This document shows, piece by piece, positions 448 to 54,590 of a stretch of 64,000 bases of DNA. This stretch comes from an uncultured Muribaculaceae bacterium (GTDB lineage Bacteria; Pseudomonadota; Alphaproteobacteria; Rs-D84), in contig CAZUED010000003.1 in NCBI GenBank assembly GCA_964619545.1, forward strand, positions 163 through 64,162, read 5' to 3'. The stretch's first letter is position 1. Each line of letters opens with the position of its first letter. The notes beneath the pieces were generated by a model. That model ran no database searches. It saw only the letters and a list, made by a program, of their open reading frames with translations, and was not told where the DNA came from. Both the position numbers and the translations under genes were made by a program.

Positions 448-474
448 CAGATGAAAGTAGAGAAGGGGTTTTTT

Positions 475-2439
475 ATGAAAAGCCGGTTTTTAGCGTATTT
501 TGTGTTCGCATTTAGCGCTGTTTTTGTATTGCCTGGGGCGGCTGATCCAATTGCTGGATATGGCCAGACTGCGCCTGTTGCAACAACAAGCGCAACACAA
601 TCTCCGCGTGCAACAGGTCAGCGCGGCGGTCGTGCGACCCCCAGCCCCACTGCGGCAGCCAAAGTTGGCGCAACACAATCAGCGTCGCGTAGTGTGTCAT
701 CAAGAAGCGTTGGTGCGCGTGCAACCGCAACATCTGCGCAAAATATAGTTTCGCGTGGCACCAGTTCGCGTACAACAAGCAGTCGCGCGGTACGCGCTCG
801 TACAGCAAGTTCAGCAACAACGGCCAGGGTTTCGCTGACCGGTACCGCAATTCGCGGCAGCAGCACTTCGACCACAACACTTGCTAACAAGCTTTATACC
901 GGGACATATTCTAATATTATTGATCCTACAACCGGTTTAATTTCAGCAGATGCCTACAGCAACTGTCTTGAATCTTATTATGCTTGCATGGATGAAATTT
1001 GTACGGCGCGTAATCCAGGACAACGTCGTTGCGCGTGCGCCGGTCGAGTAAAAACTTTTGCTAATGTAGAAGCGCAATTGCAGACAGCACGTGAAGATTT
1101 ATTAAAAGTTTCGGGACAATTGTCATTATTAATCCTTACCAAGGGCAAGGATGTTACGTCTGCATTTACTTTGACCGAGTCAGAAAAAGTTTTGAATTGC
1201 GTTTCTTGGCGTGATGCCAAAACCGCTGGAAAGACCGATGAATGGTGCGAAAGTCATACCATGCTGTCTGGCACAACAAGTTGCACCAGCTATTCTGGGC
1301 CACCGGCGTTTGTAGCGGAATACTGCTCTAGTAACGATTTTGTTCTGGGTGGATCCGATTGGATGAATGTCTTGAATGGGGCGGATTCTGATATACTTTC
1401 CAGCTTGGAAACCTATGCCAGCACGATAAACCAAGTCAATGTTATTACCACAGATAACACAAACAGCTTGTTCAGTTCATTCATGAATGTCAGCGATATA
1501 GTTGGACAGCTGGACGGCACCGGGAATTTGTTCAGTTCAACAGAAACGGCGCCCGATACTTTGGCCCAGCTGTGGGGGTATAACTTGTTCCAGTACGCCC
1601 ATAACAATGTTTGCAATCGTGTTCTGAATTCTTGCTTTAACGGAATTTATGAAGCATGCGGAAGCAATAACGGAACAACTGGTCCATATAATTATAACAA
1701 TACAATAACTGTTAACAATGATGGATCGGACTTGAATTTTGTTGTTCCAGGATCGTCTTCTTCAACCAGCACGAATACAGCAACTTGCTTTGGTTATACA
1801 AGCAGCAGTGGCGATCCATATTCAACGTTGCGCCGGCCAGTGGCGGATTCGCGCCGCAGCATTTTGCAAAAGTATGCACTGGACGCAAATGCTGATTGCG
1901 ATACGTATGGTGAAGAGTTGAAAAAGCAAGCGACAAATATGGCATATCAAAAGATAGCCGCGACTCAGTACCTGCAGCAAAAGCGTCTTGAATTCGCAAA
2001 TGAAGATGAAACAAATACAACTGCTGAATTAGTTGCTGCCAAAGAGTCTTATCGCAGTTGCGTCAGCGAGGTTTATGATTGCTATGACCAACAGACACGG
2101 ACTAATCCAACCTGGACTGCGGCACGTGTAAAGAACTATTGCTCGCAAAGCGCGGAAGTTCCCAGCTGCTATGAAACGATGGTATGTGATCAAGAAGTTG
2201 GTCGTTTGATTGATGTCGCAGACAGCATAACATGCACAAGTACCCAAGATTGGGCAGCGAACACTTGCCGCAATGTTGTCAGATTGTCAGAAATCTTGAA
2301 TGGCACGGGCGCGGCAGCGGTTTCGACTGGTGCGAACTCGGCAGGTTTGCGCGAGTACTGCTTGCAAAGCACCCCAGGTGTATATGGCGAAGGCAGTATA
2401 CGTGATTTTGGCACCGGCTGGGGTCCAGGAAGTTTATAA
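475..2439 (+). CDS. Large secreted Cys-rich protein, paralog 1. It has a signal peptide, a Ser/Thr/Ala/Arg-rich low-complexity region and a Cys-rich C-terminal region
   Basis: Track ORF 451..2439; start moved to M9, which sits after GAAGGGG and in front of a hydrophobic signal (MKSRFLAYFVFAFSAVFVLPGAA). Shares the motif C-x6-C-M-D-x2-C-x8-R-C-x-C with the next gene. Confidence 0.75.
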   Translation: MKSRFLAYFVFAFSAVFVLPGAADPIAGYGQTAPVATTSATQSPRATGQRGGRATPSPTAAAKVGATQSASRSVSSRSVGARATATSAQNIVSRGTSSRTTSSRAVRARTASSATTARVSLTGTAIRGSSTSTTTLANKLYTGTYSNIIDPTTGLISADAYSNCLESYYACMDEICTARNPGQRRCACAGRVKTFANVEAQLQTAREDLLKVSGQLSLLILTKGKDVTSAFTLTESEKVLNCVSWRDAKTAGKTDEWCESHTMLSGTTSCTSYSGPPAFVAEYCSSNDFVLGGSDWMNVLNGADSDILSSLETYASTINQVNVITTDNTNSLFSSFMNVSDIVGQLDGTGNLFSSTETAPDTLAQLWGYNLFQYAHNNVCNRVLNSCFNGIYEACGSNNGTTGPYNYNNTITVNNDGSDLNFVVPGSSSSTSTNTATCFGYTSSSGDPYSTLRRPVADSRRSILQKYALDANADCDTYGEELKKQATNMAYQKIAATQYLQQKRLEFANEDETNTTAELVAAKESYRSCVSEVYDCYDQQTRTNPTWTAARVKNYCSQSAEVPSCYETMVCDQEVGRLIDVADSITCTSTQDWAANTCRNVVRLSEILNGTGAAAVSTGANSAGLREYCLQSTPGVYGEGSIRDFGTGWGPGSL

Positions 2440-2460
2440 AGCACAAGGCGTAGATAATAA

Positions 2461-4704
2461 ATGAATAAAAATTCCAGATTTTGCAAAAAGTTTGGTGCAT
2501 GTTTATCTATGCCTTATGCTGTTTTTTTGATGTTCTGCATGGGTATAGCTGATGCAGCTGAAGTAAGTCGTGCACTTCCCGGAAAACAAGTTGCTATTTC
2601 AACGACATTCCAAAATCAGATACAATCCGAAGATGAAGTACCGGTGATAGAGCCCGGACAAGTTTCTGTACCCATATCGGTTTCACGTACGGCAGCATTG
2701 CCTGCACAAAGAAGTCAAAATGAAATAAGATCACGCACAGCGGCGACAGCTGTTCCACGCGATGCACTGAATGAAGCTGCGCGCCAAGTTGGACGCAGCG
2801 CCAAGGCCGAGGCAGCAAGTATGAATGCAACGGCACCAGTTCGTCGTGCGGGGATTTCTTTACGTCCGACAGCTGCCGAGGTTGGCGGCCGTGCAGCAGT
2901 TGTTACAGCTGGTACAACTACAGCTTCAAGTGTCAGCGCGGCAAGTCGTAGATTAACTTCACGTGCTGCAACTACAGGTCCCGATACAGCTGGGATTGAC
3001 GATACAATAGCTGTGACGGAATCATGCCAAGCGCAATATACCGACTGCATGGATCAGTTCTGCGCTGTCATTGATGCCAACCAAAAAAGATGCAGCTGCA
3101 GTAATCGTCTTTCTTCTTATTCGCGTGTAGAAACATCTGTAAAAGAAGCAAACAATCAGCTGAATGACGTCGCACAACGCATACGCTATGTGGGATTGTC
3201 TGCGGATGAAATTAGTGCGATTATGAGCGCGACCGAGGCTGAGATTGCATTACAAAATACCCGTGATACAACAGAATCACGGAATATGCTGGATGAAATT
3301 GAAAATCTTATTCGTTCGCCGGAAAATGTTGTTGCGCAAAGTTCTTCATCAACGATTGATTTGGACTTGAGTTTTGATGCAGAGGCTGATCCCATGGAGT
3401 TGTTTAATCTTTCCGGATCATCAACAGGGTCATTTTCTAATTTGCGTGGAACGGATTTGCTAAATGCCGCAAAAAAACGTTGCCAATCTGTGCTGACATC
3501 ATGCAAAGCCAAAGGTGCAAACGTCAATCAAATTACAGGTCGGTATGAAATAGAGATAGATAAAGACTGCATAACATATGAAAAAGGTCTGGAAAAGATG
3601 AATCAGACCTTGCGCACAAATGTTCGCAGTGCAACACAAATGTTGCAAAAGGCAAGACTTGCTGTGCTTGAAAATCATAACTCTTACGACGCCAAGGGTT
3701 GTGTTGGTGCTTTGGAACAATGCATGCACGACGAAATGGTTTGCGGAAGCGACTATTCTAAATGCCTTGATCCGACTAAACGCTTTATAGACGAAAGCGG
3801 AAAAGTAGTTTTGGGTCAAAATATTTCCATGATAAGAAACATTATGGCGAATTTTGATAATTCTATAATAGACGAGTCGTTTATAGGTTCAGCATGGGCA
3901 ATGTCGGGAATGTCTGGTTGTGATCAGGCACCAAATAATAATGGCAAATGCATTGTGAAGTATTTGTTGGGAAAAATCGGAATGGGCGAAGATAGCAGCT
4001 CTGGTTTGTGTCGCCCGGTTTTAGACAAGTGTCAAAAACAAACGTATGATGGCCGCGGCAAATATAATCCGAAAAACGCAATAGTCGTGGGCTATATACA
4101 GCGCGCAATGACTAATATTCGTGCTGCCCAGGAAAATATAATTTCAGATTACGCATCGACATGTATGGCGGAAATTGCAACTTGCTATTCCAAGCAGGTT
4201 ACGCAAATCAATGCATGGTCATCAAATGCCAACGTTCAGAATGTGTATTCAGTTCTGAAAGGCGCATGTCGTAATGTTGCACTGACATGCAGCTATGCGG
4301 TTTTCTCGGCCGACCAAACTGTGAATGGTTGCCCAATAACCAGCAATGATATGGCTGGAACCGATGGTGATAGGCAAAGCAAATGTATAGAAAACATTTC
4401 GGATATATTCTATCAATCAATGTTGTGTCCAGATTATTCGACATGGGTCCCGGCACAGACAGGTGCTATCGCAGGCACTATGTATCCTTATTCGCCCGAT
4501 ACACCGATCAGAGTGCATGTTAACGAGCGCTGTGTATGCCAATCAGGATATGGCGTAAATGCGGGTAGTTGTGAACAATGCCCGACCGGATACGCATTCA
4601 ATGCAAATTGCACTTATGCCAGTGCATCCCAAGGTTGTCCGATTATAGGATGCGGTTGCCCAGCGGGTACGACTTGGAATACGACTGCATCTGCGTGCCA
4701 ATAA
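2461..4704 (+). CDS. Large secreted Cys-rich protein, paralog 2, with an EGF/furin-like Cys-rich C-terminus
   Basis: 747-aa ORF with an N-terminal hydrophobic signal and an Arg/Ser/Thr/Ala-rich region. It has the same CxxYxxCMDxxC...RCxC core as paralog 1. The C-terminal end reads CVCQSGYG...CEQCPTGY...CPIIGCGCPAG. Confidence 0.75.
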   Translation: MNKNSRFCKKFGACLSMPYAVFLMFCMGIADAAEVSRALPGKQVAISTTFQNQIQSEDEVPVIEPGQVSVPISVSRTAALPAQRSQNEIRSRTAATAVPRDALNEAARQVGRSAKAEAASMNATAPVRRAGISLRPTAAEVGGRAAVVTAGTTTASSVSAASRRLTSRAATTGPDTAGIDDTIAVTESCQAQYTDCMDQFCAVIDANQKRCSCSNRLSSYSRVETSVKEANNQLNDVAQRIRYVGLSADEISAIMSATEAEIALQNTRDTTESRNMLDEIENLIRSPENVVAQSSSSTIDLDLSFDAEADPMELFNLSGSSTGSFSNLRGTDLLNAAKKRCQSVLTSCKAKGANVNQITGRYEIEIDKDCITYEKGLEKMNQTLRTNVRSATQMLQKARLAVLENHNSYDAKGCVGALEQCMHDEMVCGSDYSKCLDPTKRFIDESGKVVLGQNISMIRNIMANFDNSIIDESFIGSAWAMSGMSGCDQAPNNNGKCIVKYLLGKIGMGEDSSSGLCRPVLDKCQKQTYDGRGKYNPKNAIVVGYIQRAMTNIRAAQENIISDYASTCMAEIATCYSKQVTQINAWSSNANVQNVYSVLKGACRNVALTCSYAVFSADQTVNGCPITSNDMAGTDGDRQSKCIENISDIFYQSMLCPDYSTWVPAQTGAIAGTMYPYSPDTPIRVHVNERCVCQSGYGVNAGSCEQCPTGYAFNANCTYASASQGCPIIGCGCPAGTTWNTTASACQ

Positions 4705-6318: not shown

Positions 6319-6777
6319 ATGAGAGAGCAATGCGGACGCAGCCTGATTGAAATGCTTGGAGTGCTGGCCATCGCAGGTGTTATGACCGCTGGTGCAATTG
6401 CTATGTATAACATTGTGCGCACCCGACAGATTCGGATGGTGGCGACCCAAGATATGAAAACAATCGCAAATAATACAAAGCTGTTGTATGCCGCGCGCCG
6501 TGATTATACCGGCATATCCGCAGATTATTTGGTTAAGGCTGGCGCAATGCGCAATGAAAAATCTCCTTTGGCTGGCGCTCAGTTTTCTATTTCTGCAAGT
6601 CCAGGCCCCAAGGAATTCGCAATGGTTTTTGCAGAATTAAATTTTAATGATTGCTCTTGGCTTGCGACGCAGAATTTTGATTGGGCGGACAGAATTAGTG
6701 TGAATGGGTATTTTGAGTCCGCATCGACTTATTGTCGTCAGATGGATAAAAATGAAGTTGCGGTTTGGGTGAAATAA
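6319..6777 (+). CDS. Type IV pilin-like / pseudopilin protein (prepilin-type N-terminus)
   Basis: G|RSLIEMLGVLAIAGVMTAG fits the class III signal, with Glu at +5 and a hydrophobic helix. There is a C-terminal Cys pair. Confidence 0.55.
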   Translation: MREQCGRSLIEMLGVLAIAGVMTAGAIAMYNIVRTRQIRMVATQDMKTIANNTKLLYAARRDYTGISADYLVKAGAMRNEKSPLAGAQFSISASPGPKEFAMVFAELNFNDCSWLATQNFDWADRISVNGYFESASTYCRQMDKNEVAVWVK

Positions 6778-6826: not shown

Positions 6827-7546
6827 ATGAAAGTAAAACTGAAATGTTTTTATAAAACTTCATTTGCAAATTGCTCGTTGCTCTTTTCTCTTTGCGCATT
6901 TTTAAGTGGTTGTGTCACATATCAAACGCCGCCGCGCAATGATTGGCCGATTATTTTACGTGGCGCGACCTTCTCTGAAATGACCGATACTATGAAAATT
7001 GCAAAGCGACCCGTTTTTATTGGTGGTGGTGGAAAAATAATAAACAAAGATGCCGGGCCAGAAAATATAAGTCAATATGGTAAAGAGCCCACGCCAACAG
7101 ACATTAGTCCAGCAGTATTAAAGTATATGGCTTCGCTGGAATATGAGTTATATGATTCTTTATTAAAACCGGGAATCCAGGTTCAGCGCGTGGGCACCGA
7201 TGTTGTTTTATTGCTGACACGTGATTCGTTTATGTATTTGGACGCACCAGAAGTTTCGGATGATGGTGAAGATACATTGAAAATCGTTGCAAAAATACTG
7301 AAAAAATATGATGCTACGTTTATGGAAATTTCGGGTTATACCGATGCAACAATAGACAAGAATGCGGCATCTGCACTTTCGTTGGATATGGCGCAAAGGG
7401 TTGGAATTTTTATGGCAAACCATGATATAAACCCTGCACGTATGTTTATTGTTGGTCGGGGCGCTGCACGTCCTATTGCGGCCCAAGATGATACAGGTCG
7501 GCGCATGAATCGGCGCGTTGAAATCAGATTGTCGCCAGCAAGATAG
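6827..7546 (+). CDS. OmpA-family peptidoglycan-associated lipoprotein
   Basis: Lipobox LSGC plus a C-terminal OmpA_C domain (SGYTD...NRRVEI). Confidence 0.8.
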   Translation: MKVKLKCFYKTSFANCSLLFSLCAFLSGCVTYQTPPRNDWPIILRGATFSEMTDTMKIAKRPVFIGGGGKIINKDAGPENISQYGKEPTPTDISPAVLKYMASLEYELYDSLLKPGIQVQRVGTDVVLLLTRDSFMYLDAPEVSDDGEDTLKIVAKILKKYDATFMEISGYTDATIDKNAASALSLDMAQRVGIFMANHDINPARMFIVGRGAARPIAAQDDTGRRMNRRVEIRLSPAR

Positions 7547-7613
7547 CAAATTTTCTGATTGAAATTTATTTTTTATGGATTACAATTAGCAAAGAAAACA
7601 AAAAGGAAGGAAA

Positions 7614-8273
7614 ATGAAAAACCAAAAACCGCTTCCAAAAAAAGCGAAAAACTACAAGAAAATTGGTCTTATCGCTGCTGTGGTTGTCGCCGTGGCTGCA
7701 TTGGGATTTTGGGCTGTTCGGTATTTTACCGCACCGATTTCAATTGAAAAAGCAATCGAGCATGTTTCAACTGAAGCGGTAAGCGGCAGCGACCTGCGTA
7801 TTGCGGTCGTACGTATGGATGCAATTCAGACCCAAGCAAAAGTTTTGGCCGATTTGCATAAACAACGCGAATCTTATGAGAATAAGCTGCGTGATGAATT
7901 GTCAAATCGTCAGAAAGAGCTAGAAAATGAAAAGGCAGAAATAGAAAAATCGCAAGATGTTCTTTCACGTGAAGCTTTACAAAAACGCGTTTCTGATTAT
8001 CAGCAGAAAGTTTCAAAGTTGCAGCAAGATTTGACTACTCGCGCCCAGGCAATAGATGCATCTTTCCAGAAAGCATTGGCCAAGGTACAAAGCGAACATC
8101 TGGATCCGATAATTGACGCTGTTATTACAAAAAAGAACTTGTCATTGGTTATTGATGGCCGTTTGGCTCGCACAGGCGGAGAAATCAAGAATCTGGACAT
8201 TACGGATGACATAGTGATTGCTTTGGATAAAAGAATCCCAAGCGTCAAAATGGAAACTCCAAAAGGGTTCTAA
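7614..8273 (+). CDS. skp: Periplasmic chaperone Skp/OmpH-like
   Basis: N-terminal hydrophobic signal/anchor, a coiled-coil body, and a position upstream of lpxD. Confidence 0.7.
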   Translation: MKNQKPLPKKAKNYKKIGLIAAVVVAVAALGFWAVRYFTAPISIEKAIEHVSTEAVSGSDLRIAVVRMDAIQTQAKVLADLHKQRESYENKLRDELSNRQKELENEKAEIEKSQDVLSREALQKRVSDYQQKVSKLQQDLTTRAQAIDASFQKALAKVQSEHLDPIIDAVITKKNLSLVIDGRLARTGGEIKNLDITDDIVIALDKRIPSVKMETPKGF

Positions 8274-8403
8274 AATAGTTCTGAATTAAATCGCCGCAAT
8301 CGCGGCGATTTTTTTAATATAAAAATGTTTTGTAAAAAACTTTGATTTTGTTGATTTTGCCTTTCTACTTTTGCCTTTTGTTTTTTTGTGTTATAATTCA
8401 CCT

Positions 8404-9147
8404 ATGAAAAAGTTTTTTGCTTCATTGTTTGTTATTAGTTTTTCATTGCTGTTCATGGCGCCTGTGCGTGCATCAGATGCCCCGGATTTCAAGATTTACG
8501 AAGACGTTTCCATAAATAATCAGCCAAAATCCATGCCAGAAATAGAGGAATTATTTCTTAATCCCCGTGCCCAGACAGAAAATCTTTGGGCTGCCGGAAA
8601 AAATTCAATGTTAGAAATTTCTTATACTGGTTGCCCATTTCATACAATTCGTGAATGCCTGATTTGGAAGCGTAAACCAGTAATAATGGAAACAATCCCA
8701 TTGCCAACGCGGCATATTAAAAAAACTGATGATTATCAAACCGCATTGGTAAAAAGGTACGAGGCTCTGATGCAGGCAGCCAGATCTTGTTGCACTGCCG
8801 GCATGGAGAACAAGTTGATAAATTCTGGCGCATCCGCTGGTTTGATTTATAAATTTATGGTTGATGATGCAAACTTTTACGGATTTGGGGATAGATGCTT
8901 GATGATAACAGATGAAGAACTGCAAGAAAACTATTCTGGGACTGCAACCGCAAGGGCGGTGATGGGTGTTCGTGATACATGCCTGTGTCAGCGGCGGGAT
9001 TATTTTGATGCACTACTGGCGCCATTTGACGATTTTCCAGACGAAGAGTATAATTATACTTATCAAGATGGATTGAAGCGCGAGGTAAATGTTTCAATCA
9101 GCAATGATGTACGTGCAGTCAAAGAAATTTTGACACGCTGCCTATAA
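8404..9147 (+). CDS. Secreted Cys-containing hypothetical protein inserted between skp and lpxD
   Basis: Track ORF 8371..9147; the signal peptide starts at M12 (MKKFFASLFVISFSLLFMAPVRA). Ten Cys residues. Confidence 0.55.
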   Translation: MKKFFASLFVISFSLLFMAPVRASDAPDFKIYEDVSINNQPKSMPEIEELFLNPRAQTENLWAAGKNSMLEISYTGCPFHTIRECLIWKRKPVIMETIPLPTRHIKKTDDYQTALVKRYEALMQAARSCCTAGMENKLINSGASAGLIYKFMVDDANFYGFGDRCLMITDEELQENYSGTATARAVMGVRDTCLCQRRDYFDALLAPFDDFPDEEYNYTYQDGLKREVNVSISNDVRAVKEILTRCL

Positions 9148-10265: not shown

Positions 10266-10690
10266 TGGTAGATACAAAGGGTGTAGAAGCTGTAATTCCA
10301 CATCGCGGCAATATGAGATTGGTGGATGAAATTCGCGAATTTAATGAAATCAGTGGTGTTGGTATAAAACATGTCAGGGATGATGAATTTTGGTGTGCCG
10401 GACATTTTCCCGGAAATCCGATAATGCCTGGTGTTTTACAGGTCGAGGCCTTGGCGCAAACTGCATGCTTTATTGTGTTCAAGCAAATGGGTGCAACAGG
10501 TAAGGACACTTTGGGCTATTTTACCACTATGGAAAAAATCAGATTTTCGCACATGGTAAAACCTGGCGATACGCTTGAATTGCATGTAGAAATTTTGGCA
10601 AAAAAATTAAACATGTATAAATTTCATGGAATTGCAATGGTTGGCGGGAAAAAAGTTTCCGAGGCTACATTTTCCGCAATCATGAATTAA
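10262..10690 (+). CDS. fabZ: 3-hydroxyacyl-ACP dehydratase
   Basis: Hotdog-fold motifs (HFPGNPIMPGVL). Confidence 0.95.
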   Translation: MMVDTKGVEAVIPHRGNMRLVDEIREFNEISGVGIKHVRDDEFWCAGHFPGNPIMPGVLQVEALAQTACFIVFKQMGATGKDTLGYFTTMEKIRFSHMVKPGDTLELHVEILAKKLNMYKFHGIAMVGGKKVSEATFSAIMN

Positions 10691-10794
10691 AATCGCTGTA
10701 CGTGCCTTTATCGGCAGTTAAATACTTGTATAAAGCATCGGGCGTCCATATAAATGGCGCCCGAATTTTTAATACGTGTTTTGCGAAAGAAACA

Positions 10795-10995
10795 CAGGTT
10801 ATGTTAGAGCATAAGTTATAGGGCATAACGCATAGATATTTTTTACCTTGTGCCTTATGCTCTAAAAACACCCATCCATTTTGTTCCAGGATTTTTAGGT
10901 CGCGGGTTTGCAGCAGTATAAAGTTTATTTTCCCTGAACCGACTTGTATCATAGTGTATCTATGTCTTATGCCTTTAGCCTTATGCTCTAAAACG
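10795..10995. repeat. Three copies of a ~35-40 bp repeat unit (consensus ...gccttatgctctaaaa...), one inverted and two direct
   Basis: Copies at 10799-10840 (reverse), 10845-10872 and 10960-10995. The track ORFs here contain the internal repeats IVLEHKAKG and VFLEHKAQG and are probably non-coding. Confidence 0.6.
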
Positions 10996-11096
10996 ATTGC
11001 GCAGTGTCGAAATTTTCGGCAAAAAATGCGTGGCATTATTTTCCTGGTATTATTTGTAAATCCGATAAGCATGAAAATCTCCGATTTTTATTTAAT

Positions 11097-11205
11097 TTTC
11101 AAAGTGCAATTGTGGTGTCGGCTTCACCGACAACCTATAAATAATTATTTTACCTGTGAGCAACGCGAACACATTAATTGCACATTGCACTTTGCTAATT
11201 GCTCA
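11097..11205. repeat. MITE-like element, copy A (~100 bp, with terminal inverted repeats AAGTGCAA...TTGCACTT)
   Basis: Its reverse complement aligns at ~80% identity to 18612-18720. Confidence 0.7.
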
Positions 11206-11616
11206 TTAGTTTTCCAGCCATCCTTTGATTTTTGCAGCTTGCGCGATAGTTTGCATTGCATCATTCCACAGGGCAGCTTTGGCATTTTCTGACCATTCAT
11301 GCTGATGTGGAGCGCGCCGCAAGTCTCCAAATTCTTTCAAGACTTCCAGTTGTTTGGGCGTTAGCTTGCCGGCCAGGTAAAGCCGAGTGATAAGAGTTTC
11401 AACATCAATAGCTTCACAAGGATATGGATTTCGTGCCACTGGTCTTCCGATACGCATACGCGCAATGCTGGCAGATGAAAGCGCATCCTTTTGTCGGCAA
11501 GTTAAAAACCAAAACCACATTTGATCGGCGTCTTGAAATTTTCTTTCTGGTGCGTCAAAAGCCGTAGAAGGTATATTTTTTTGTTTTAAGTTGGCGTTCA
11601 TTTTTTCTCTCTCCAT
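11206..11616 (-). CDS. Hypothetical small protein with a possible helix-turn-helix (LTPKQLEVL)
   Basis: ORF with two possible ATGs (11616 and 11601; the second follows GGAG). Lies inside the IR-bracketed block. Confidence 0.5.
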   Translation of the reverse strand: MEREKMNANLKQKNIPSTAFDAPERKFQDADQMWFWFLTCRQKDALSSASIARMRIGRPVARNPYPCEAIDVETLITRLYLAGKLTPKQLEVLKEFGDLRRAPHQHEWSENAKAALWNDAMQTIAQAAKIKGWLEN

Positions 11617-11741
11617 TTTACCCCGTATAATTACTGGGTATGCATTCCTACACTAAAAATAATTGAATTATATCAAATGATACAACTACAAATAGATACT
11701 GCGGTTAGGTTTCTGACATTTTTTGTTTTTTGATAAATTAA

Positions 11742-11775
11742 AAAAATTCGCCACTTGGGCGAATCGGAGAATTGT
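11742..11775 (-). terminator. Rho-independent terminator after the Cys-rich paralog 3 gene
   Basis: attcgcc-acttg-ggcgaat hairpin with a T-run on the minus strand. Confidence 0.5.
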
Positions 11776-11790: not shown

Positions 11791-13938
11791 TTATCTATCT
11801 TGACCGATTTTGGTAGATGTTCCGGATTTCAGGTTGTCATTGGCTATACGAAGTTGTACTTGGTATGCGTTTATACAATCTGTCATACTGGAATTAGTCA
11901 TAGAATCGCCACATTTTTCAAATTGAGATTCAGATAATTTCAATGTTGTTGACATTCCTTTCAGCAAGTCAGAATCAAATTTAAGCTGCTTTCTGGCATC
12001 TGTTTTATTTGATGCGGAACGTATTACGCTCAAGTTGTTATTCAAGCAAGAAATCATATCTGATGTGCTGTAAACCTCATTACAATCACGAGCACCATTT
12101 AATCTTACATTACCTTTAGAAGATTTGCTTGCACTAGTAGAAGAATCATCAGTAGTATCGCCGCCAGCGGCCTGTAATTTTGATACCAGAATGGATTTCT
12201 CCATCTGAGTCTTTAACCGCTTCATAGTAACGTCCAAAAAGTCATACTGACGTTTCATCTGTTGAGTAATAATTGTCGTTTTCAATGCGATTGTATCCGC
12301 CATCATTTGTTTGTCAGCGGCCGAGGTTGGATTTTTTGTACTTCCAATGTTATAAGCATGGGTGCTGCACAAAGCGATGGCTGAATTGATATAATCATTT
12401 CCGCTGTCTTCTTTGCACCCGTTATCAGCTGTGCCAATGGAAAGAATTGCGTCCAGATTGTTGTTTTTGACACACAGATTGCGATCTGGCAAACGTCTTA
12501 GCTGTGCCAAATTACTTATAACAGCTAACTGATCAGAATTTGTTGCACACCATTTTATTGCGTCGGCTGCAGATTCTTCGCCGCGAATTACACTTGGTGC
12601 GTCCTGGGCAATTATTCTGCGCAAAGTTTCTATATCAATCGTCGATTGCTTTTTGCGATTTTTAAATAACACGGAATTATCAATTGCGTCAGATGCACAT
12701 GCAACGCGAATCCCGCCAGAACTGCCCGCATCCATATCCAGCCAGTTTTGTTGAATGTCCTCTTGATTATTTAACATCTTTAACAAAGTGCAATGGGGCT
12801 GTTGAGATTTTACTCGGCGGTTCCCCTGAGCATCATTTTCGTATGCTATAGGCCAGTATCCGCGGCCGGTTTTTGTATCATAATCGCAAGTTATGCTTGT
12901 CTTATCATCAATTTTTTCAGTTTGATTTTGAGAACATGTCTCGCACATATATTGCCCCCAGACATTGCAAGAGCCATTCAGCATCATGTAAATATCTGTT
13001 ATATCAACGCCCAAAGATTGCGCTAAAACCAACGCATCATACAACTCGTCCAAAACTGCATCATACGGATCAAAGAATTTATTTGCCTTATCCTTGAACG
13101 CTTTGACTCGCCGAGGACCCTGGCAATTATTTCCATTAGAATCACAACGCGCATAATCAAAAACATTTTGCATTGTGTTTTTTAAATCTTTCATCGCAAC
13201 ATCAGAATTTTCAAGCTGGGTCAGTATTTGACCACCAATTTGTTCGCGTGCCAAAACATCTGCCGATACACCCGCATTGACTGCATTAGTAATTGTTTTA
13301 TCGGGTGCTGATGCGCTTGCTGCTTGGGCCGCGGCCTGTGCTTGCTGGGCCGCCAGTTGTTTTTGCTCTTCCAATGCTTGCTGAACAGCCGCGGCGGATT
13401 GAGCAGATTGTTCTTGCATCTGTTGCTGCATCTGCATCATCTGCGCTTGCATTTGTTCTATCTGAGTGTTTGATTGCGCCGCTGCTGCATTTGCAGCCTG
13501 CGTTGTTGCAGCATTTTGCGCCTCGGTTGCTTTTGCAATAGCGGCACTTACCATCTGTGCCGCCAATGTTTGGATTAAATCGTCACCATATTGCTCGCAC
13601 GAAGGATTACTTTTCACGCAACCTTTCACAATCGGAAGCGCCAATTCCATGGTTGTGCAGCCCGCGCACTTTGGCTGGGCGCAACGCAAAATAAGTGAAT
13701 TACAATTTCCAAAATCTGCAACCGGCCTTTGTTGCCCCAGTGGATTAGGGTTTATCGCGGCATTCCACTGATTGTTGTTCAATGCGCCGGCACTGCCGGT
13801 AAATACAGTTCTGTTACCTGAAATTCCGCCAGAATTTGCAAAAGAAGGCCCTGGTCCGCCGATAGGACTGTCGCCATAGGCAGTCCCCAGTGCAAAGCAG
13901 GCGGTACAAACAGATAAAAATCTGATTAAAATCTTCAT
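11791..13938 (-). CDS. Large secreted Cys-rich protein, paralog 3. It has a signal peptide, a Gln/Ala-rich coiled region and many Cys residues
   Basis: Track ORF 11791..13998; start moved to M21 (MKILIRFLSVCTACFALGTAYG). The motif C-x6-C-x4-C-x2-C resembles paralogs 1 and 2. Lies 67 nt downstream of virB10. Confidence 0.7.
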   Translation of the reverse strand: MKILIRFLSVCTACFALGTAYGDSPIGGPGPSFANSGGISGNRTVFTGSAGALNNNQWNAAINPNPLGQQRPVADFGNCNSLILRCAQPKCAGCTTMELALPIVKGCVKSNPSCEQYGDDLIQTLAAQMVSAAIAKATEAQNAATTQAANAAAAQSNTQIEQMQAQMMQMQQQMQEQSAQSAAAVQQALEEQKQLAAQQAQAAAQAASASAPDKTITNAVNAGVSADVLAREQIGGQILTQLENSDVAMKDLKNTMQNVFDYARCDSNGNNCQGPRRVKAFKDKANKFFDPYDAVLDELYDALVLAQSLGVDITDIYMMLNGSCNVWGQYMCETCSQNQTEKIDDKTSITCDYDTKTGRGYWPIAYENDAQGNRRVKSQQPHCTLLKMLNNQEDIQQNWLDMDAGSSGGIRVACASDAIDNSVLFKNRKKQSTIDIETLRRIIAQDAPSVIRGEESAADAIKWCATNSDQLAVISNLAQLRRLPDRNLCVKNNNLDAILSIGTADNGCKEDSGNDYINSAIALCSTHAYNIGSTKNPTSAADKQMMADTIALKTTIITQQMKRQYDFLDVTMKRLKTQMEKSILVSKLQAAGGDTTDDSSTSASKSSKGNVRLNGARDCNEVYSTSDMISCLNNNLSVIRSASNKTDARKQLKFDSDLLKGMSTTLKLSESQFEKCGDSMTNSSMTDCINAYQVQLRIANDNLKSGTSTKIGQDR

Positions 13939-14005
13939 ATTCTCTCTTGAAGCAAGTTTATCATAAAATGCGAGGAAATGCAAGCCTCCCTTTAACAAGT
14001 GGAAG

Positions 14006-16300
14006 CTAAATTATTGGGGGAAAGCAATCACCGCCAGCTGCTGGACAGCAGTTGAATCCTTGGCTACCCATGTCTGTATAAACCTCGCCCGTGCAACAGC
14101 CGTTTAAGTCTGGCGATGTACCATCTTCGCAGGTCAGTGCCGTCGTGGTGGTGGTTGCGGGTGGTGTTTCTTTGGCAAATGGATTTTTTATTGTACCGTC
14201 CGCATTGTATTGCAGGCCCAAAACTTGCTCGTTATATTCTTTTGTTCCCTTAGTTAATTGCTGGCCATTGGTTCCGACAATACCGGTTTGCTGCTGGTTA
14301 TTCCAAATAGCCTGCTGTTGGGCATTATTTATCGCTTGATACTGAATTGCTTTACAATATGCAACAACGGTACGATAGTCATAGCCAGCCTCGGAAATAG
14401 TTTGTGCTGTTACACCCGCACTCAGCTGTCCATTAGTGCCGCAGTATTTCTGTATATCAAATCCGCGAACTTGTCCAACCCATGATGCATCATCATAATT
14501 TGGTATGGCTTCGGACGCTTTATGAGAAACATATTGCGAAGGAGTCAAATTGCAATTTTCAAGCCCATTCACCTTGTCGCAGAAGTTCACAATTAAATCC
14601 TTTGGCGAATAAACCGTTATGCGCGTACCAGCGGCAATAGAAAATGGAGGAACCGTGTTGTCCAGCATATCAACCATTAATTTTTGCGCAACTCTGTTCC
14701 ATGTTGAAATAATTTCATTTTTTGCCAGCTCGGACGAGCGAACTTGACCACTTTGTGTAACCGTATTGTTATCCAGATCAATTTGATTTACGAACTTGTC
14801 TGAAATTGGCGCAATCAAATTAACAGCGGCAGGCACAACTGCCGTTATCATCGGCATTATGAATTGCTCCATATAATCTGTGCTGCCGTGACCTGGAACG
14901 CCAACGCGACCTTGGCTGTCGCCAGCAAAGGGCTCGTCCCCGGCAAAGCTGAATTCAACTCCGTCCGGTCTAACAAAGCGATACCATTTGATTTGCATAC
15001 GACCGATGGCTTTATACGGACCCGGCATTTCACCAGTCAAATAACCCAACATCAATGTTCCGGTCGGAATTATTATAGTGCGTCCGTTATCAGAATAGAC
15101 ATGTCTATCAACTGTTGCCTGAACTGGCAACATGGATTGACGCTCTATCTTTGCATCTGCACGTATTTCATTTACGATTGTCGCAGGAATAGGCTTGTAC
15201 TGGCGCAGAACAAAAGTGCGGTCATAGGGCTCGGTCGATATAAATGCATCGCCCGCAGATGAAGGTACCAGGTTACTTTCTGGTTTATATGCAAATGCTG
15301 GATTTATCTCTGACAAACGTTTTGCACCACCCGCAGCTCTGGGTAATTCTGCCGCTGCTGCATTTACTTGTCTTGCTCGATTTTGTACGCGTGCGTTCGC
15401 CGGATTGGACAATACAGGAACATTCGCGCTTGATGCAATAAATCCGATTCGATCAAAGTCAGAGCCTATTTTTCTGCTGGGATTTTTAAGATCGGTAATA
15501 AATCCGGTATCCAAATTATATTCACCCAGTGGGCTGGTGCAGTCCAAGTCAGAAAAAGGATGAAAAAGATAATGTCCACCTTGGGGACGTATCCATCCGA
15601 TTTGCTTTCCATATGCGTCATAGCCGCCGAATGCAAATTCATAGCAGCGCTCGGTATTTAATGCTGCTGTAGTTACTGGCGCAGGCAAATTTTCTGTTGC
15701 AAATTTTGGCGCAAGGGTTTCGACCGCCTCGGCCACAGGATTAATTTCAGGGGCAGTCAAAACAGGTTCTGGTTCTGGCAATTGCACTGGTTTTTGTGGT
15801 TCTACTTTTTTTGTAGATAAAGCAACAGGAATTTCAGCAGTTTGTGCCATTTTGGCCTCGGCACTGGCGGGGTAATACTCAATAAGTACTTTAATGCCGG
15901 TTGGTTCCAAGTCTGCAGCAGGCGTCCAAGTTAATTCTGCACTGCAAGGAATGCCAAGTGTAATTTCGCCCATATTTGTACAGGTGGTATCTATGCTTAA
16001 TCCATCAATTTTTTGGGATAGTTTTACGCTGGGAATCATTGCGACTGCATTCGAAGAAATTTTAATAGTCTGTGTCTGTTTTTCGCCAACTGGAATGTTT
16101 TGCCATGCGATCTCAGATGGATCCATGGTCAGCTCCAGAACTGGTTTTGATTCGGACTTTGGTTTATCCTTGGAATCGCGACCCATCAGAATAACCAGCA
16201 AAACAACGACTACCAAAAAAGCAGCGAACATCACGATCCACAGCACATGCCGTGGCATGGACTTTTTTACATCGCTGATAGTGGTTGTTATCATCGCCAA
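14006..16300 (-). CDS. virB10: Type IV secretion protein VirB10/TrbI-like with a long C-terminal extension
   Basis: N-terminal TM segment, a Pro-rich region and a TrbI-type domain (...VDRHVYSDNGRTIIIPTGTLMLG...). This is followed by a Q/N-rich stretch, a TTTTT linker and a tail with 6 Cys. Confidence 0.88.
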   Translation of the reverse strand: MAMITTTISDVKKSMPRHVLWIVMFAAFLVVVVLLVILMGRDSKDKPKSESKPVLELTMDPSEIAWQNIPVGEKQTQTIKISSNAVAMIPSVKLSQKIDGLSIDTTCTNMGEITLGIPCSAELTWTPAADLEPTGIKVLIEYYPASAEAKMAQTAEIPVALSTKKVEPQKPVQLPEPEPVLTAPEINPVAEAVETLAPKFATENLPAPVTTAALNTERCYEFAFGGYDAYGKQIGWIRPQGGHYLFHPFSDLDCTSPLGEYNLDTGFITDLKNPSRKIGSDFDRIGFIASSANVPVLSNPANARVQNRARQVNAAAAELPRAAGGAKRLSEINPAFAYKPESNLVPSSAGDAFISTEPYDRTFVLRQYKPIPATIVNEIRADAKIERQSMLPVQATVDRHVYSDNGRTIIIPTGTLMLGYLTGEMPGPYKAIGRMQIKWYRFVRPDGVEFSFAGDEPFAGDSQGRVGVPGHGSTDYMEQFIMPMITAVVPAAVNLIAPISDKFVNQIDLDNNTVTQSGQVRSSELAKNEIISTWNRVAQKLMVDMLDNTVPPFSIAAGTRITVYSPKDLIVNFCDKVNGLENCNLTPSQYVSHKASEAIPNYDDASWVGQVRGFDIQKYCGTNGQLSAGVTAQTISEAGYDYRTVVAYCKAIQYQAINNAQQQAIWNNQQQTGIVGTNGQQLTKGTKEYNEQVLGLQYNADGTIKNPFAKETPPATTTTTALTCEDGTSPDLNGCCTGEVYTDMGSQGFNCCPAAGGDCFPPII

Positions 16301-16321: not shown

Positions 16322-17797
16322 TTATTGAACTCTTACTACATTGCAAGCGGTCCCTTGGAACTTTGTCATTTTATCACAAAGCTTTTGTGCGCTTTCAATG
16401 TCCGACATGGGCCCAATACGCAGGCGATAAAGCCGCGCGGTTGCAGCGCCCGTACCCAGATCTCCAACTCCAGACTCGTCAACTGCGAAATAAACCATAT
16501 TACGATAAGGATTCAGCAGTCCTTGTCCATCATCACCACTGAATTTCGCCAGCAGCTTTGTCCAATAATCATTCAGTGCTTTGACAGAAGTATCGGATTT
16601 CAGCTCAACAGCGACACCTGCTTGATTAGAGGTTATAATTGGAATGTCGCTTTGCGGCAGGAACGAGCCCGCAGTATTGCGAACACTTGGCAGCATATTA
16701 ACGCCAGTCGCACCAGTTGATGCGCCATTTGTCGGCATTACCATCGGCGGTTGAAATCCATTAACCTGTTGGTCAGTGATTGGCTGCAACATTGCACCAG
16801 AATCAACCGGCATATTTCCATAACCAACATTTTGCAAGGATTGTGATGATTGCATGCTTTGCATAACGTTAGATTCAGCCAGTGCCATGACGCTGGAAGT
16901 GTCAGCAATCAAGAAGGGTTTTGCGCGACGCTTGATACAAACAATTCGCTGACCACTGCGCAATACCATATCCCCAACTGCTTCTACAATCAACAGGCGT
17001 CCGTTTTCACCATCAGTACGAAAACCGACTGGCGATTCACCACCTTCGACCAAGATAGAAACAACTGGTCTTTGAGTCATTGCGATAACCTTGTCGCCAA
17101 AATCAATATAGGTAAAGATTCTGTCGCGCCATACGCGTTCAGGCGCAATTACAAAGTCATCAGGATTCGGGACAAAAATGTCTAAATCAAAGCGGAACTC
17201 TGACGGATCAATTTTCATTGTTTTTATCCAGCCGTAATCTTCGCCGTCAACGCCCAAGGTAGAAGTTGAATTTTTCTTTGGGAAAATAGAGTTCATACCA
17301 GAAGTTTGACCAGCAGAAGAGCTGGTTGCATTTGGTATGCTAGAACGCCCATCCAGAACAACATCAACCTGGGAATAAGAAATTTCGCTGGAATTAGCAG
17401 GTTCGGAACGCAGATAGAATAAATATTTATTTCCTGATTTGCCAGTAATAATCAAATTTGTGTCGCTGCCCTGATTTGTTGCAACCGGTGTCATATAAAT
17501 TGTTCTGCCACCTTTTTGCGGATCCATTTGGAACAAACCTTCGTTACCAATGACGCCATCTTCGATAATTTCGCCTTCGGGCAAATTTATCATGGTTACC
17601 ATTCCATTACGCAAACGAATCGGAAGAACTGCGCCTGGCGCCCATGTCAGTTGGGCAAAGCCAGGTTTAGAACTGCCTGTGGCCATATTTGCCTCTGGGT
17701 TATCCCACGCATCCTGGACACCATAATCTTCGGCACTTGCCCCGCCAATACAAAAGGCAAAAATCAAAGGGCAAAGAGCAAATAATTTTATATTCAT
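16322..17797 (-). CDS. virB9: Type IV secretion protein VirB9-like with a C-terminal SPOR-like extension
   Basis: Signal peptide, and N- and C-terminal domains similar to VirB9/TrbG. About 190 extra residues end in a putative SPOR fold. Confidence 0.82.
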   Translation of the reverse strand: MNIKLFALCPLIFAFCIGGASAEDYGVQDAWDNPEANMATGSSKPGFAQLTWAPGAVLPIRLRNGMVTMINLPEGEIIEDGVIGNEGLFQMDPQKGGRTIYMTPVATNQGSDTNLIITGKSGNKYLFYLRSEPANSSEISYSQVDVVLDGRSSIPNATSSSAGQTSGMNSIFPKKNSTSTLGVDGEDYGWIKTMKIDPSEFRFDLDIFVPNPDDFVIAPERVWRDRIFTYIDFGDKVIAMTQRPVVSILVEGGESPVGFRTDGENGRLLIVEAVGDMVLRSGQRIVCIKRRAKPFLIADTSSVMALAESNVMQSMQSSQSLQNVGYGNMPVDSGAMLQPITDQQVNGFQPPMVMPTNGASTGATGVNMLPSVRNTAGSFLPQSDIPIITSNQAGVAVELKSDTSVKALNDYWTKLLAKFSGDDGQGLLNPYRNMVYFAVDESGVGDLGTGAATARLYRLRIGPMSDIESAQKLCDKMTKFQGTACNVVRVQ

Positions 17798-17876: not shown

Positions 17877-18530
17877 CTATTGCATAAAATCGAGCGGATC
17901 ACTTCCCCCTGATTCCACCCGGTATTCCGAGACTTGCAGCCCCAGCGGATTTTCCTGTCTGTTGCCCCATTTCAATTCTGGCGTGTAGGTCAATCCTATT
18001 ACAATAGTAAAATCTTTTGGCGGGGTATGTCCAGCGCTTTCTGATGTGCAAAACCATCTGAATTTTACAGCGAATTTATCACTTCCGCGTGGCTCAATTG
18101 CGGGCGATTGAAACTCTACAGGGCACGAAAACTGAACGTTCGGAGAATCCTGCATGAAAGCAGACCATAACTGAGTTGTTGCAAATCTGGCATAAACCTC
18201 TCTAGATGACCAGATATAAACTGGGCCGTCTGGGCTGCGCCACTTGTACCGCATGGTATTTACATTGGGTGTTATTTCGTTGCGCGCGCGAATATATTCC
18301 TTGATGAAGCTTTCCTTGTAATCGATCATAGTTTTGTTATTTACTGGCAGTTGTTGAATTTCGATTATTTGACCCTCGACACGGCGCGCATTCAGCAAGA
18401 AAACCTGGGTCCTATTCAATGGGAACATGTTAGAGACTGCGAAAATCATGGCCAAAGCAGTTGCAATTGCTGCGGCCAGCACGAAAGACATCATGCGCGC
18501 GGTAAAAGCATTGGGTGTGACAACTGCCAT
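17877..18530 (-). CDS. virB8: Type IV secretion protein VirB8-like
   Basis: N-terminal TM segment, a periplasmic domain and the NPLG motif (NPLGLQVSEYRV). Confidence 0.78.
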   Translation of the reverse strand: MAVVTPNAFTARMMSFVLAAAIATALAMIFAVSNMFPLNRTQVFLLNARRVEGQIIEIQQLPVNNKTMIDYKESFIKEYIRARNEITPNVNTMRYKWRSPDGPVYIWSSREVYARFATTQLWSAFMQDSPNVQFSCPVEFQSPAIEPRGSDKFAVKFRWFCTSESAGHTPPKDFTIVIGLTYTPELKWGNRQENPLGLQVSEYRVESGGSDPLDFMQ

Positions 18531-18611: not shown

Positions 18612-18720
18612 ATCAAAGTGCAATTAACGTGTTCGCTGCGCTCACAATTAAATAATTATAAAAGCATCGGTGAATGCCGACACCACAATTGCTAATTGAA
18701 TTTTGTACATTGCACATTAA
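18612..18720. repeat. MITE-like element, copy B (inverted relative to copy A)
   Basis: caaagtgcaatt...gccgacaccacaattgc aligns to the reverse complement of 11097-11205. Confidence 0.7.
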
Positions 18721-18729
18721 ACTTTTCCC

Positions 18730-18758
18730 TTGCCTTAAAAAAACTAATAGGGTAGAAT
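18730..18758 (+). promoter_or_regulatory. Sigma70-like promoter for the tRNA-Trp-secE-nusG unit
   Basis: TTGCCT, 17-nt spacer, TAGAAT. Confidence 0.45.
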
Positions 18759-18873
18759 ACTTTTCGCTTGATTTTGGTAATAAATGTGTTATTGTGCGCG
18801 AACGAAAATAAGATAAACTGGGGTGGAGTTCGCACGATTCCTGCGGTGCAGGCGCGTGGCAGACAAGAGTTTT

Positions 18874-18947
18874 AGGGGCATAGTTCAACGGTAGAATAGA
18901 GGTCTCCAAAACCTTTGGTGTGGGTTCGATTCCTACTGCCCCTGCCA
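18874..18947 (+). tRNA. tRNA-Trp (CCA)
   Basis: Cloverleaf folded by hand. The anticodon loop is CTCCAAA, the T-loop is TTCGATT, and CCA is encoded. Confidence 0.9.
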
Positions 18948-19018
18948 AAAAGCTTTTGTGATGGGTATAAAAATGTCCACCAAAAGCCAAGCGACCAGTT
19001 AAAAAGTTTGGAACACGT

Positions 19019-36237: not shown

Positions 36238-36744
36238 ATGAGATTTGGAAAAGTTCTTATTGGATTGGGCTTTGCGGTTATTACTCAGGGCGCAATCGCC
36301 GGACAAAATATTGAAATTTATTATTCGCCATCATGCCCCCATTGTCACCATGCAATGGAGTTTATTGATAAAACTTTGAGCGTGCAGTACAAAGATTTGC
36401 AGGTCAACAAGGTAAATGTTGTCGAACAAAAAAATCGTGATGCATTCATGAATGTTTTGAAAAAATGTGAATACAAATCTGGTGGTGTTCCAGTGATGGT
36501 CGTAAATGGTAAATGCTTCCAAGGTTATGCCGAATTCATGAATACAGAAATAATGCAGGCAATGGGCCCGGCCGATGTTGCTAGTGATAAAGCTGTCGCA
36601 ACAGAAAAATCTGAATCTGTTGCCCAGCTTCCGCCCGAACAAATACAGCCGGCAGACAAGGGAACATCAACAATGCTTTATGTTTTGCTGGGTTTGTTGG
36701 TAGCAGCGCTGGGCGTAGTATTGTTCGTTAAGAAGAAAAAATAA
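36238..36744 (+). CDS. Exported glutaredoxin-fold protein (CPHC) with a C-terminal TM anchor
   Basis: Signal peptide, a Grx-like fold (CPHC ... GGVPVMVVNGKCFQGY) and a C-terminal hydrophobic helix ending in KKKK. Confidence 0.65.
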   Translation: MRFGKVLIGLGFAVITQGAIAGQNIEIYYSPSCPHCHHAMEFIDKTLSVQYKDLQVNKVNVVEQKNRDAFMNVLKKCEYKSGGVPVMVVNGKCFQGYAEFMNTEIMQAMGPADVASDKAVATEKSESVAQLPPEQIQPADKGTSTMLYVLLGLLVAALGVVLFVKKKK

Positions 36745-48704: not shown

Positions 48705-48819
48705 CCGAGTGGCATTTATAGATTCTGCAACTTTTTTTCAATCATCTGTAAGCACTAATGGCATAATTCATCCTTTGTAGTACAGGTCAATTATACTTTT
48801 AAATAATGAGTTTTCAATA

Positions 48820-49656: not shown

Positions 49657-49726
49657 GGGAAAATAAAAAAAACGCGCTATGCGCGTCTGTTTGATGCCTC
49701 AATTATATCAAATTTTTCATAAAAAA

Positions 49727-51268: not shown

Positions 51269-51371
51269 GTCTCAAACCATACAACACGAATTTTAATTTG
51301 CAATGATTTTTCTTGCTTTGTTATAAAAAAAAAACTACTCTGTTTGTCAATAAGAACAAGAGGATTCAGTC

Positions 51372-52388: not shown

Positions 52389-52411
52389 TAATTTGTAAAA
52401 TAGAGAGAGAA

Positions 52412-53047: not shown

Positions 53048-53074
53048 AAAAAACGCGGTGGTTCCCCGCGTTTT

Positions 53075-54580: not shown

Positions 54581-54590
54581 TTTTTTCTCC

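Follow-up and report, generated by a model that had tools for sequence, protein, structure and literature searches.

A secreted, cysteine-rich protein family of the order Rs-D84 and its clade-restricted adjacency to virB10

The locus

The window analysed here is the whole 64,000-nucleotide stretch of contig CAZUED010000003.1, from an uncultured alphaproteobacterium of the order Rs-D84. On its minus strand, directly after the type IV secretion system (T4SS) gene virB10, lies a gene for a 715-residue secreted, Cys-rich protein, hereafter X. The family is specific to the order. Its members are secreted and probably disulfide-paired, and their genes persistently accompany those of two further secreted Cys-rich families and, in many cases, genes of envelope biogenesis. 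Linkage of the family to virB8-virB10 is a clade-restricted adjacency, found in one small clade and at one further locus (L015). The genes and features at the locus are as follows.

11791-13938, minus strand: gene X, 715 residues plus stop; fused form of a two-gene module named XN + XC
13939-14005, minus strand: spacer of 67 nt from the virB10 stop (14006) to the ATG of X (13938), with an AGAGAG purine run just 5' of the ATG
11735-11765, minus strand: terminator-like hairpin GATTCGCC-CAAGT-GGCGAATT, then a T-run, 26 nt past the stop of X
14006-16300, minus strand: virB10 (TrbI, 67 bits), with a Cys-rich tail
16322-17797, minus strand: virB9 (CagX, 77.5 bits), with a SPOR-like C-terminal tail
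17877-18530, minus strand: virB8 (PF04335, 52.7 bits)
10680-11616, minus strand: small open reading frames (ORFs) h136 (11206-11616) and h130 (10680-11072), 3' of X, neither with a signal peptide

The longest ORF (11791-13998, minus strand) opens at a TTG at 13998, and the ATG at 13938 yields the 715-residue product. Homologues share the same MKILIRF start, in agreement with the latter. The gene is real and not an assembly artefact, because the identical product is encoded on two independent contigs, namely the NCBI contig (64.9 kb) and a Logan assembly of SRR31702759. An earlier note on this DNA had described a large ORF lying co-oriented right after virB10, at a distance of 67 nt and with a terminator of its own, and the ORF, its translation, its strand, the coordinates of the gap and the hairpin with T-run bear this description out. 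Neither a consensus promoter nor a convincing terminator was detected in the spacer between virB10 and X. The block formed by virB8-10 and X is divergent from tRNA-Trp-secE-nusG-rplK, and from the sequence X is probably co-transcribed with virB8-10 in this genome.

Protein architecture, cysteines and predicted structure

The protein is divided into six segments, of which the first is a signal peptide and the last corresponds to XC.

13873-13938, minus strand: residues 1-22, signal peptide of the signal peptidase I type, read by eye, with cleavage between MKILIRFLSVCTACFALGTAYG and D
13708-13872, minus strand: residues 23-77, with a conserved Asn/Trp motif (N42, T44, G51, N54-N56, W58, N59, N63) and a predicted local distance difference test score (pLDDT) below 50
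13588-13707, minus strand: residues 78-117, first Cys cluster (C79, C86, C91, C94, C107, C114), invariant in 86 homologues
13276-13587, minus strand: residues 118-221, long Ala/Gln(/Met)-rich helix, from composition and predicted helices
12430-13275, minus strand: residues 222-503, conserved globular core of XN, comprising a helical bundle, a beta-rich Cys domain and a helical part
11794-12429, minus strand: residues 504-715, XC module, helical, with a long helix (540-590) and a helical bundle (625-712)

The earlier note had assigned a signal peptide, which agrees with our by-eye reading of a Sec-type sequence ending in AYG before D; the hydrophobic N-terminal segment is kept in every aligned homologue. 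A lipoprotein reading was rejected, as a canonical lipobox is missing and the signal peptides of many homologues contain no Cys. The AlphaFold model, built with 75 sequences, has a mean pLDDT of 72.9 and a predicted template modelling score (pTM) of 0.54. Residues 78-117 form a small helical Cys cluster in the model. Three parts make up the core of XN: residues 226-321 are a helical bundle (pLDDT 90-96), residues 324-415 a Cys domain rich in beta structure, and residues 436-480 helices. The columns of the Asn/Trp motif (residues 42-63) are invariant or near-invariant despite the low AlphaFold confidence. The long Ala/Gln coiled region of the earlier note was likewise recovered: 32 Ala and 24 Gln are found among the 104 residues of 118-221, which are predicted to form helices at 118-175 and 183-209, with a low pLDDT as a monomer. 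This segment is probably a coiled-coil stalk, judging from the model.

X has 24 Cys, 22 of them in the mature part, instead of the more than 30 that had been claimed. Fifteen Cys are invariant or nearly so among the homologues, and those of the XN core that are invariant or near-invariant are 265, 272, 324, 332, 351, 383, 414, 464 and 489. The number of Cys in the mature protein ranges from 16 to 34 among homologues, and is even in 81 of the 86. The spacing between C91 and C94 differs between homologues, being either x2 or x4. The even parity and this variable spacing favour paired disulfides over metal sites, and a metal-cluster reading of C-x6-C-x4-C-x2-C is disfavoured on the same two grounds. 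After export, X would be expected to fold with about 11 intramolecular disulfides.

A two-gene module

The sequence comparison with related loci indicates that gene X is the fused form of XN (1-503) and XC (504-715), two secreted proteins encoded side by side. At L007, the closest GTDB relative, residues 1-503 match a first gene with 90% identity, and residues 24-236 of the next ORF are 85% identical to residues 504-715 of X. The junction falls exactly at the predicted signal-peptide cleavage site of this downstream ORF. Relative to L007, the window protein lacks the signal peptide of XC and a Cys-rich tail of XN of about 50 residues, with a spacing similar to that of epidermal growth factor (EGF) modules.

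The split form is present at 53 of 80 species loci and a single ORF at the other 27, and the two forms are interspersed across a neighbour-joining (NJ) tree. The split C-part ORFs encode 227-298 residues with a signal peptide of their own, and match the family hidden Markov model (HMM) with E values of 1e-22 to 1e-32. Separate XC genes always come after XN and never after virB genes. Such repeated fusion and fission is good evidence that XN and XC, both of them secreted, work together. XC was also considered as a minor pilin of the VirB5 type, which it resembles in length (about 210 mature residues), helical character and possession of its own signal peptide. This candidate was rejected, with no Pfam match for residues 507-715 at E<=10 and a gene position that follows XN and not virB genes.

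At the C-terminus of XN, split forms have a short Cys-rich module whose spacing is EGF-like, for example C-x5-G-x-W-x4-5-C-x-C-x2-G...C. The module is seen at about 5690-5842 of L007 and at the C-termini of P0012, P0098, P0110 and P0112, and is missing from the fused window protein. A comparable Cys-rich tail occupies residues 690-747 of A747, one of two tandem proteins described below; the EGF-like-spaced module has no Pfam support.

An order-specific family

A search of 5.8 billion proteins returned more than 1200 relatives of X, all of them unnamed or 'hypothetical', and all from metagenome-assembled genomes (MAGs) of uncultured Alphaproteobacteria or 'Rickettsiales'. With a profile search of 1.84 billion representatives, 363 clusters were found at E<=1e-3, all of them from gut MAGs of the Rs-D84/Ca. 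Enterousia type, and 345 of these also lie at <=1e-10; the family is thus sharply bounded, and twilight-zone relatives are lacking. In GTDB species genomes, relatives were located at 250 loci in Candidatus Enterousia and allied MAGs, whose hosts are humans, ruminants, horses, chickens and termites, sampled from the gut. The family is confined to the Rs-D84/Ca. Enterousia lineage of gut Alphaproteobacteria, and residues 40-495 are well conserved across the order (44-50% identity).

Pfam and NCBIfam scans of the whole protein, the core and the C-terminal module returned nothing, and only low-complexity coiled-coil noise appeared in Pfam at E<=10. A PDB sequence search with the 75-sequence profile likewise returned coiled-coil noise only, and the predicted structure gave no specific fold match. 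With no characterised relative and no recognisable fold, X is new as a protein family.

Genomes of the order Rs-D84 are below 1 Mb, encode no respiration and an incomplete glycolysis, and a partner-dependent lifestyle is suspected (PMC12306168). The lineage is widespread in human, ruminant, bird and termite guts, and its cell surface is uncharacterised (PMC12306168). Several of the public MAG records behind L007-L010, L015, L019, L027, L083 and P0112 are titled 'uncultured Muribaculaceae bacterium', 'Bacteroides fragilis' or 'Lachnospiraceae bacterium'; on a clearly alphaproteobacterial locus, such titles probably reflect mislabelling or bin contamination.

Sequence comparison with the tandem pair and the VirB10 tail

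Two further secreted Cys-rich proteins are encoded in tandem near the start of the window, and the earlier note had proposed that the Cys cluster common to the two resembles the first one of X.

451-4704, plus strand: A662 (451-2439) and A747 (2461-4704), paralogous secreted Cys-rich proteins

The all-against-all alignment of the three proteins supports homology within the pair and nowhere else. A662 and A747 match each other (BLASTP E=1e-11; HHalign probability of 98% between the families). The 715-residue protein aligns to A662, A747 or VirB10 only with BLASTP E values above 4. Family HMMs built from related loci do not detect the X and A families in one another in either direction (E>0.09), and HHalign assigns X versus the A662 and A747 families a probability of at most 2%. 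Taken together, these values imply that homology of X to the tandem pair is undetectable. One HHalign segment, X 111-155 against A662 480-510 (C-x2-YG-x2-L, then a helix; E=0.025, probability 2%), was not accepted.

The cluster described in the earlier note, C79-x6-C86-x4-C91-x2-C94, is present in X, but only its C-x6-C-x4-C part is common to the pair, where it continues as x9-C-x-C. The strongly conserved motif of the A family is C-x3-Y-x2-CMD-x2-C. The C-x6-C-x4-C spacing turns up in 2% of shuffles of the mature 715-residue sequence and is, as a sign of kinship with the pair, suggestive at most. What stands of the proposed kinship is a gene neighbourhood conserved across the order, described below; sequence similarity could not be detected. 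The proposed likeness to the VirB10 tail fared similarly: the tail is real and the Cys-rich style is shared, but no alignment joins the tail to X.

The virB8-virB9-virB10 block

In rvh-type clusters, virB10 is usually followed by the gene for VirB11, an ATPase of the T2SSE/VirB11 family that is cytoplasmic, forms hexamers, has Walker motifs and lacks a signal peptide. The earlier note had placed X in this slot. X is not a VirB11: it has no Pfam or NCBIfam match, and carries a signal peptide and 22 mature Cys. The large ORFs of the window yielded no virB11, virD4 or virB4, and in none of 10 related virB8-10 loci, judged by Pfam calls at L087 and by gene order and ORF sizes at the others, does virB10 precede a large ORF able to encode virB11 or virD4. 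At the Enterousia locus L087, virB10 is directly followed by homologues of h136 (47% identity) and h130 (34%), at 12697-13443, and it may be these two genes that make up the genuine conserved end of the virB8-10 block.

VirB9 and VirB10 both carry additional segments. Residues 455-489 of VirB9 (16331-16435, minus strand) form a SPOR-like segment of the peptidoglycan-binding type (PF05036, 20.8 bits against a cut-off of 21), and a faint SPOR match is also seen on the Enterousia VirB9 at L087. Residues 723-764 of VirB10 (14009-14134, minus strand) constitute the Cys-rich tail, CEDGTxPDxNGCCTGExYTDMGxQGFNCCPxxGGDCFPP(I/L)(I/L). About 150 more conserved residues past the TrbI domain hold 4 further Cys, and the N-terminal extension has conserved Cys at 106, 118, 218 and 253. 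The Cys tail is invariant in 14 VirB10 orthologues that span the order Rs-D84, at overall identities of 50-82%, and VirB10 with this tail is found order-wide.

Upstream of virB8, an ORF of 125 residues (18613-18990, minus strand) overlaps tRNA-Trp(CCA) (18874-18947, plus strand) and is almost certainly spurious; its counterpart at L087, an 80-residue call (7379-7621), is likely spurious too.

Gene neighbourhood across the order

Neighbourhoods were compared at 86 loci, 80 of which represent one GTDB species each; at 77 of these 80, at least 2.5 kb of upstream sequence is available. Within the fetched flanks, virB9/virB10 lies within 10 kb of X at only six species loci (L007, L008, L009, L011, L013 and L015). 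The arrangement in which virB10 is followed by X occurs at nine loci, in most with gaps of 59-106 nt, and at L015 an ORF resembling an outer-membrane beta-barrel stands between the two genes. When the conserved core is placed on a midpoint-rooted NJ tree, one derived clade unites the window and two further loci with five of the six species loci that have virB10 beside X. L015 stands apart from this clade, and both are nested in a clade in which X is adjacent to lpxD, fabZ and ompH.

These data bear directly on the functional link to the T4SS that the earlier note had drawn from adjacency. X could be a T4SS accessory specific to the lineage, in which case it would belong to the periplasmic or surface portion of the VirB8-10 outer-membrane core, docking for instance on the Cys tail of VirB10 or on the SPOR tail of VirB9, or else an adhesin with which the T4SS contacts its target cell. 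The co-oriented position directly after virB10, across 67 nt that hold no terminator, and the recurrence of this arrangement at nine loci speak for such a role. The extra domains of VirB9 and VirB10, the invariant seven-Cys tail included, are order-wide, as are the X family and virB10 themselves. However, a dedicated accessory is expected to keep its linkage to T4SS genes across the lineage, and the adjacency is missing at 74 of the 80 species loci, being limited to the derived clade and L015. In the Enterousia contig NODE_1_length_707725, the virB block stands beside nusG as in the window, in the order nusG, virB8-9-10-h136-h130; X lies about 75 kb from virB10, flanked by A-like and h258-like proteins. 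X shows no similarity to VirB, Trb, Tra or Cag families, and its conserved neighbours are other secreted Cys-rich proteins. An accessory role of this kind is unlikely on this evidence, and the functional link is not upheld.

At L012, X, XC, h136 and h130 lie together without virB10. Either one sub-lineage gained X between virB10 and h136 by insertion, or two separate breaks disrupted an ancestral order virB10-X-h136-h130. On either history, linkage of X to virB10 is not maintained across the order.

The persistent neighbours of X are the A family and the family of a third Cys-rich protein of the window.

8371-9147, plus strand: h258, third secreted Cys-rich protein, 8 Cys, between skp (ompH) and lpxD

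At 41 of the 86 loci, a gene of the A family lies no more than 10 kb from X, often co-oriented and directly upstream of it; this count takes in relatives of 1030-1140 residues picked up by the A747 profile at E of about 1e-5. Proteins similar to h258, which has no Pfam or PDB match, are also found near X at 41 of 86 loci. Longer h258 homologues, of about 400-460 residues, are encoded 1-3 kb from X on the opposite strand at about half of all loci. The usual order in Enterousia is an A-like gene (plus), in some cases a gene for a BspA-type leucine-rich repeat (LRR) protein (minus), XN (plus), XC (plus) and an h258-like gene (minus). At L041 the A-like gene, XN and XC are co-oriented and the A-like gene stops 72 nt before XN, and at L052, L070 and L042 an A662-like gene, X and an A747-like gene share one strand. 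In another clade (L006, L010, L014, L016, L022, L023 and L027), X is located between lpxD-fabZ and skp-ompA-dnaX. Linkage to the A family and h258 is seen in basal as well as Enterousia clades. Pfam scans of the neighbouring uncharacterised proteins at related loci gave no functional hint besides the BspA-type LRR surface protein and the outer-membrane beta-barrel.

The number of Cys in the exported part is even in these neighbours too (A662, 22; A747, 32; h258, 8), and likewise in VirB10 (14). The window also encodes an exported protein with a glutaredoxin/thioredoxin fold and a CPHC motif (36238-36744, plus strand; PF00462, 23.8 bits), membrane-anchored at its C-terminus. By its sequence it is a candidate periplasmic thiol-disulfide oxidoreductase serving the many exported Cys-rich proteins.

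A further alternative is that X has an unrelated function in the periplasm, for example as a chaperone or in the binding of metals or other ligands, takes no part in any assembly and owes its neighbours to inherited synteny. The fold gives no readable function, and reduced genomes are known to retain long syntenic blocks, both of which leave room for this explanation. Yet the links to the A family and h258 persist in basal and derived clades in the face of heavy rearrangement around X, and XN and XC have fused or separated repeatedly. The even Cys parity and the variable C91-C94 spacing speak against metal sites in particular. We regard this alternative as unlikely, though it deserves to be taken seriously.

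A recurrent block of five genes (about 415-450, 380-400, 436-445, 170 and 155 residues) was also observed near X or dnaX in distant members of the order, at L041 (621-5376), L002 (1-3975), L006 (10805-14715) and L010 (16171-20925); its sole Pfam match is a weak Zn-ribbon.

Interpretation

With moderate confidence, we favour the reading that X is a disulfide-stabilised envelope protein of the periplasm or surface that acts with other Cys-rich families and is not a dedicated part of the T4SS. In such a protein, the Ala/Gln helix would oligomerise into a coiled-coil stalk that lies between head domains locked by disulfides. XN and XC, probably together with the A-family proteins and h258, would build a disulfide-stabilised periplasmic or surface assembly that may keep the envelope intact or attach the bacterium to a partner cell. 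The place of X after virB10 would be the product of a rearrangement in one sub-lineage that set the gene between virB10 and h136/h130.

Several points weigh against this interpretation. The location of X and its partner are deduced from sequence and model, and the model is only moderately confident at the pLDDT and pTM values given above. The Cys-tailed virB10 and the X family are both seemingly order-wide, so that phyletic co-occurrence cannot separate them. In the clade of the window, X begins 59-106 nt past virB10 and no terminator is detectable in between, an arrangement that would allow genuine co-expression of X and the T4SS. Finally, the grouping of X with h136 and h130 at L012 and of virB10 with h136 and h130 in Enterousia makes an ancestral virB10-X-h136-h130 order as parsimonious as an insertion.

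A bolder version of the envelope reading, which we consider doubtful, is that XN/XC, the A662/A747-like proteins, h258 and the Cys-tailed VirB10 form an undescribed, Rs-D84-specific, disulfide-locked envelope or attachment apparatus with which these metabolically dependent bacteria grip a partner cell. If so, the apparatus perhaps feeds from the partner cell through the T4SS, and would be a functional analogue of the chlamydial Cys-rich outer-membrane complex made of entirely different folds.

The order-wide XN/XC module and its two linked Cys-rich families provide a concrete set of candidates for the envelope or attachment structures of the lineage. The annotation of X as a new T4SS component replacing VirB11, tempting as it is, is unsupported and has been removed. 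For the biology of the T4SS, the invariant Cys tail of VirB10 and the SPOR-like tail of VirB9 in the order Rs-D84 are the more notable features.

Other features of the window

A 152-residue ORF between dnaX and an OmpA-like lipoprotein (6319-6777, plus strand) has a prepilin-type N-terminus, with G preceding RSLIEML at the cleavage site. Sub-threshold matches to N_methyl, Bundlin and PilS point to a type IV pilin-like protein, and the ORF occupies the same position in relatives. A phage-like stretch at about 48800-58000 on the minus strand encodes a major capsid protein (PF19821, E 5e-69, 57189-58004), a T7-type terminase RNaseH-like fragment (48820-49656), DnaB (49727-51268) and a double helix-turn-helix regulator, and is probably a prophage or a remnant of one.

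Comparison with known systems

The virB genes of the window resemble the rvh-type cluster virB8-virB9-virB10-virB11-virD4 of the Rickettsiales in that virB8, virB9 and virB10 follow one another in that order on one strand. Unlike the rvh-type cluster, virB10 is the last recognisable T4SS gene here and, by gene order and ORF sizes, at all 10 related loci examined, with Pfam calls for the neighbours at L087; VirB9 has its SPOR-like tail, and VirB10 its N-terminal extension and invariant Cys tail.

Pertussis toxin and the Ptl system offer a model in which X would be Sec-exported cargo that acquires its fold and its disulfides in the periplasm before the T4SS releases it as an effector or toxin. 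The signal peptide, the probable disulfides and a position in the same same-strand block, and probably the same transcription unit, as virB8-10 are common to both cases. Unlike pertussis toxin, X has no toxin or enzyme domain, and its gene is mostly distant from virB genes. Its 44-50% identity across the order, similar to that of VirB10, is the behaviour of a core gene and not the variation of an effector, and an assembly is suggested by the fusion and fission with XC as well as by how tightly X is linked to other Cys-rich proteins. A cargo role is very improbable.

F-type systems possess TraN, a protein of about 600 residues and 22 conserved Cys that is secreted to the outer membrane. X is similar in being secreted, in its size (the two fall in a range of about 600-700 residues), in its 22 mature Cys and in its T4SS-adjacent position in this genome, and could accordingly be pictured as a TraN-like adhesin that stabilises mating pairs in a P-type-like system. 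Unlike TraN, its neighbours are P-type VirB8, VirB9 and VirB10, with no other T4SS families among the large ORFs of the window, and the family is usually not linked to a T4SS. Identity with TraN was rejected, as no Pfam TraN match at E<=10, no PDB sequence match and no fold match were obtained, and X lies outside any F-type tra operon, with no F-type tra genes nearby. Even as an analogue, a TraN-like adhesin is exceedingly improbable.

OmcB of Chlamydia is a beta-rich, Cys-rich protein of the outer-membrane complex with a disulfide-stabilised role in the envelope or in adhesion. Membership of X in the OmcB/DUF11-repeat family was rejected, there being no Pfam match, and OmcB/OmcA and X have no sequence or fold relationship. 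Unlike OmcB, X is predicted to be mostly helical with a coiled coil, and its even Cys parity suggests intramolecular rather than intermolecular disulfides. A further difference from Chlamydia is that Rs-D84 genomes reportedly keep the genes for peptidoglycan synthesis and rod shape (PMC12306168). OmcB/OmcA are nonetheless the nearest functional analogy for X, as in both cases the protein is exported by Sec, has a mass of 60-75 kDa and some two dozen Cys, and is encoded in a reduced-genome, host-dependent bacterium, with genes for other Cys-rich envelope proteins alongside. Most plausibly, the role of X is a variant of this known theme, that of exported Cys-rich proteins of the envelope or surface in a bacterium that depends on a host or partner.

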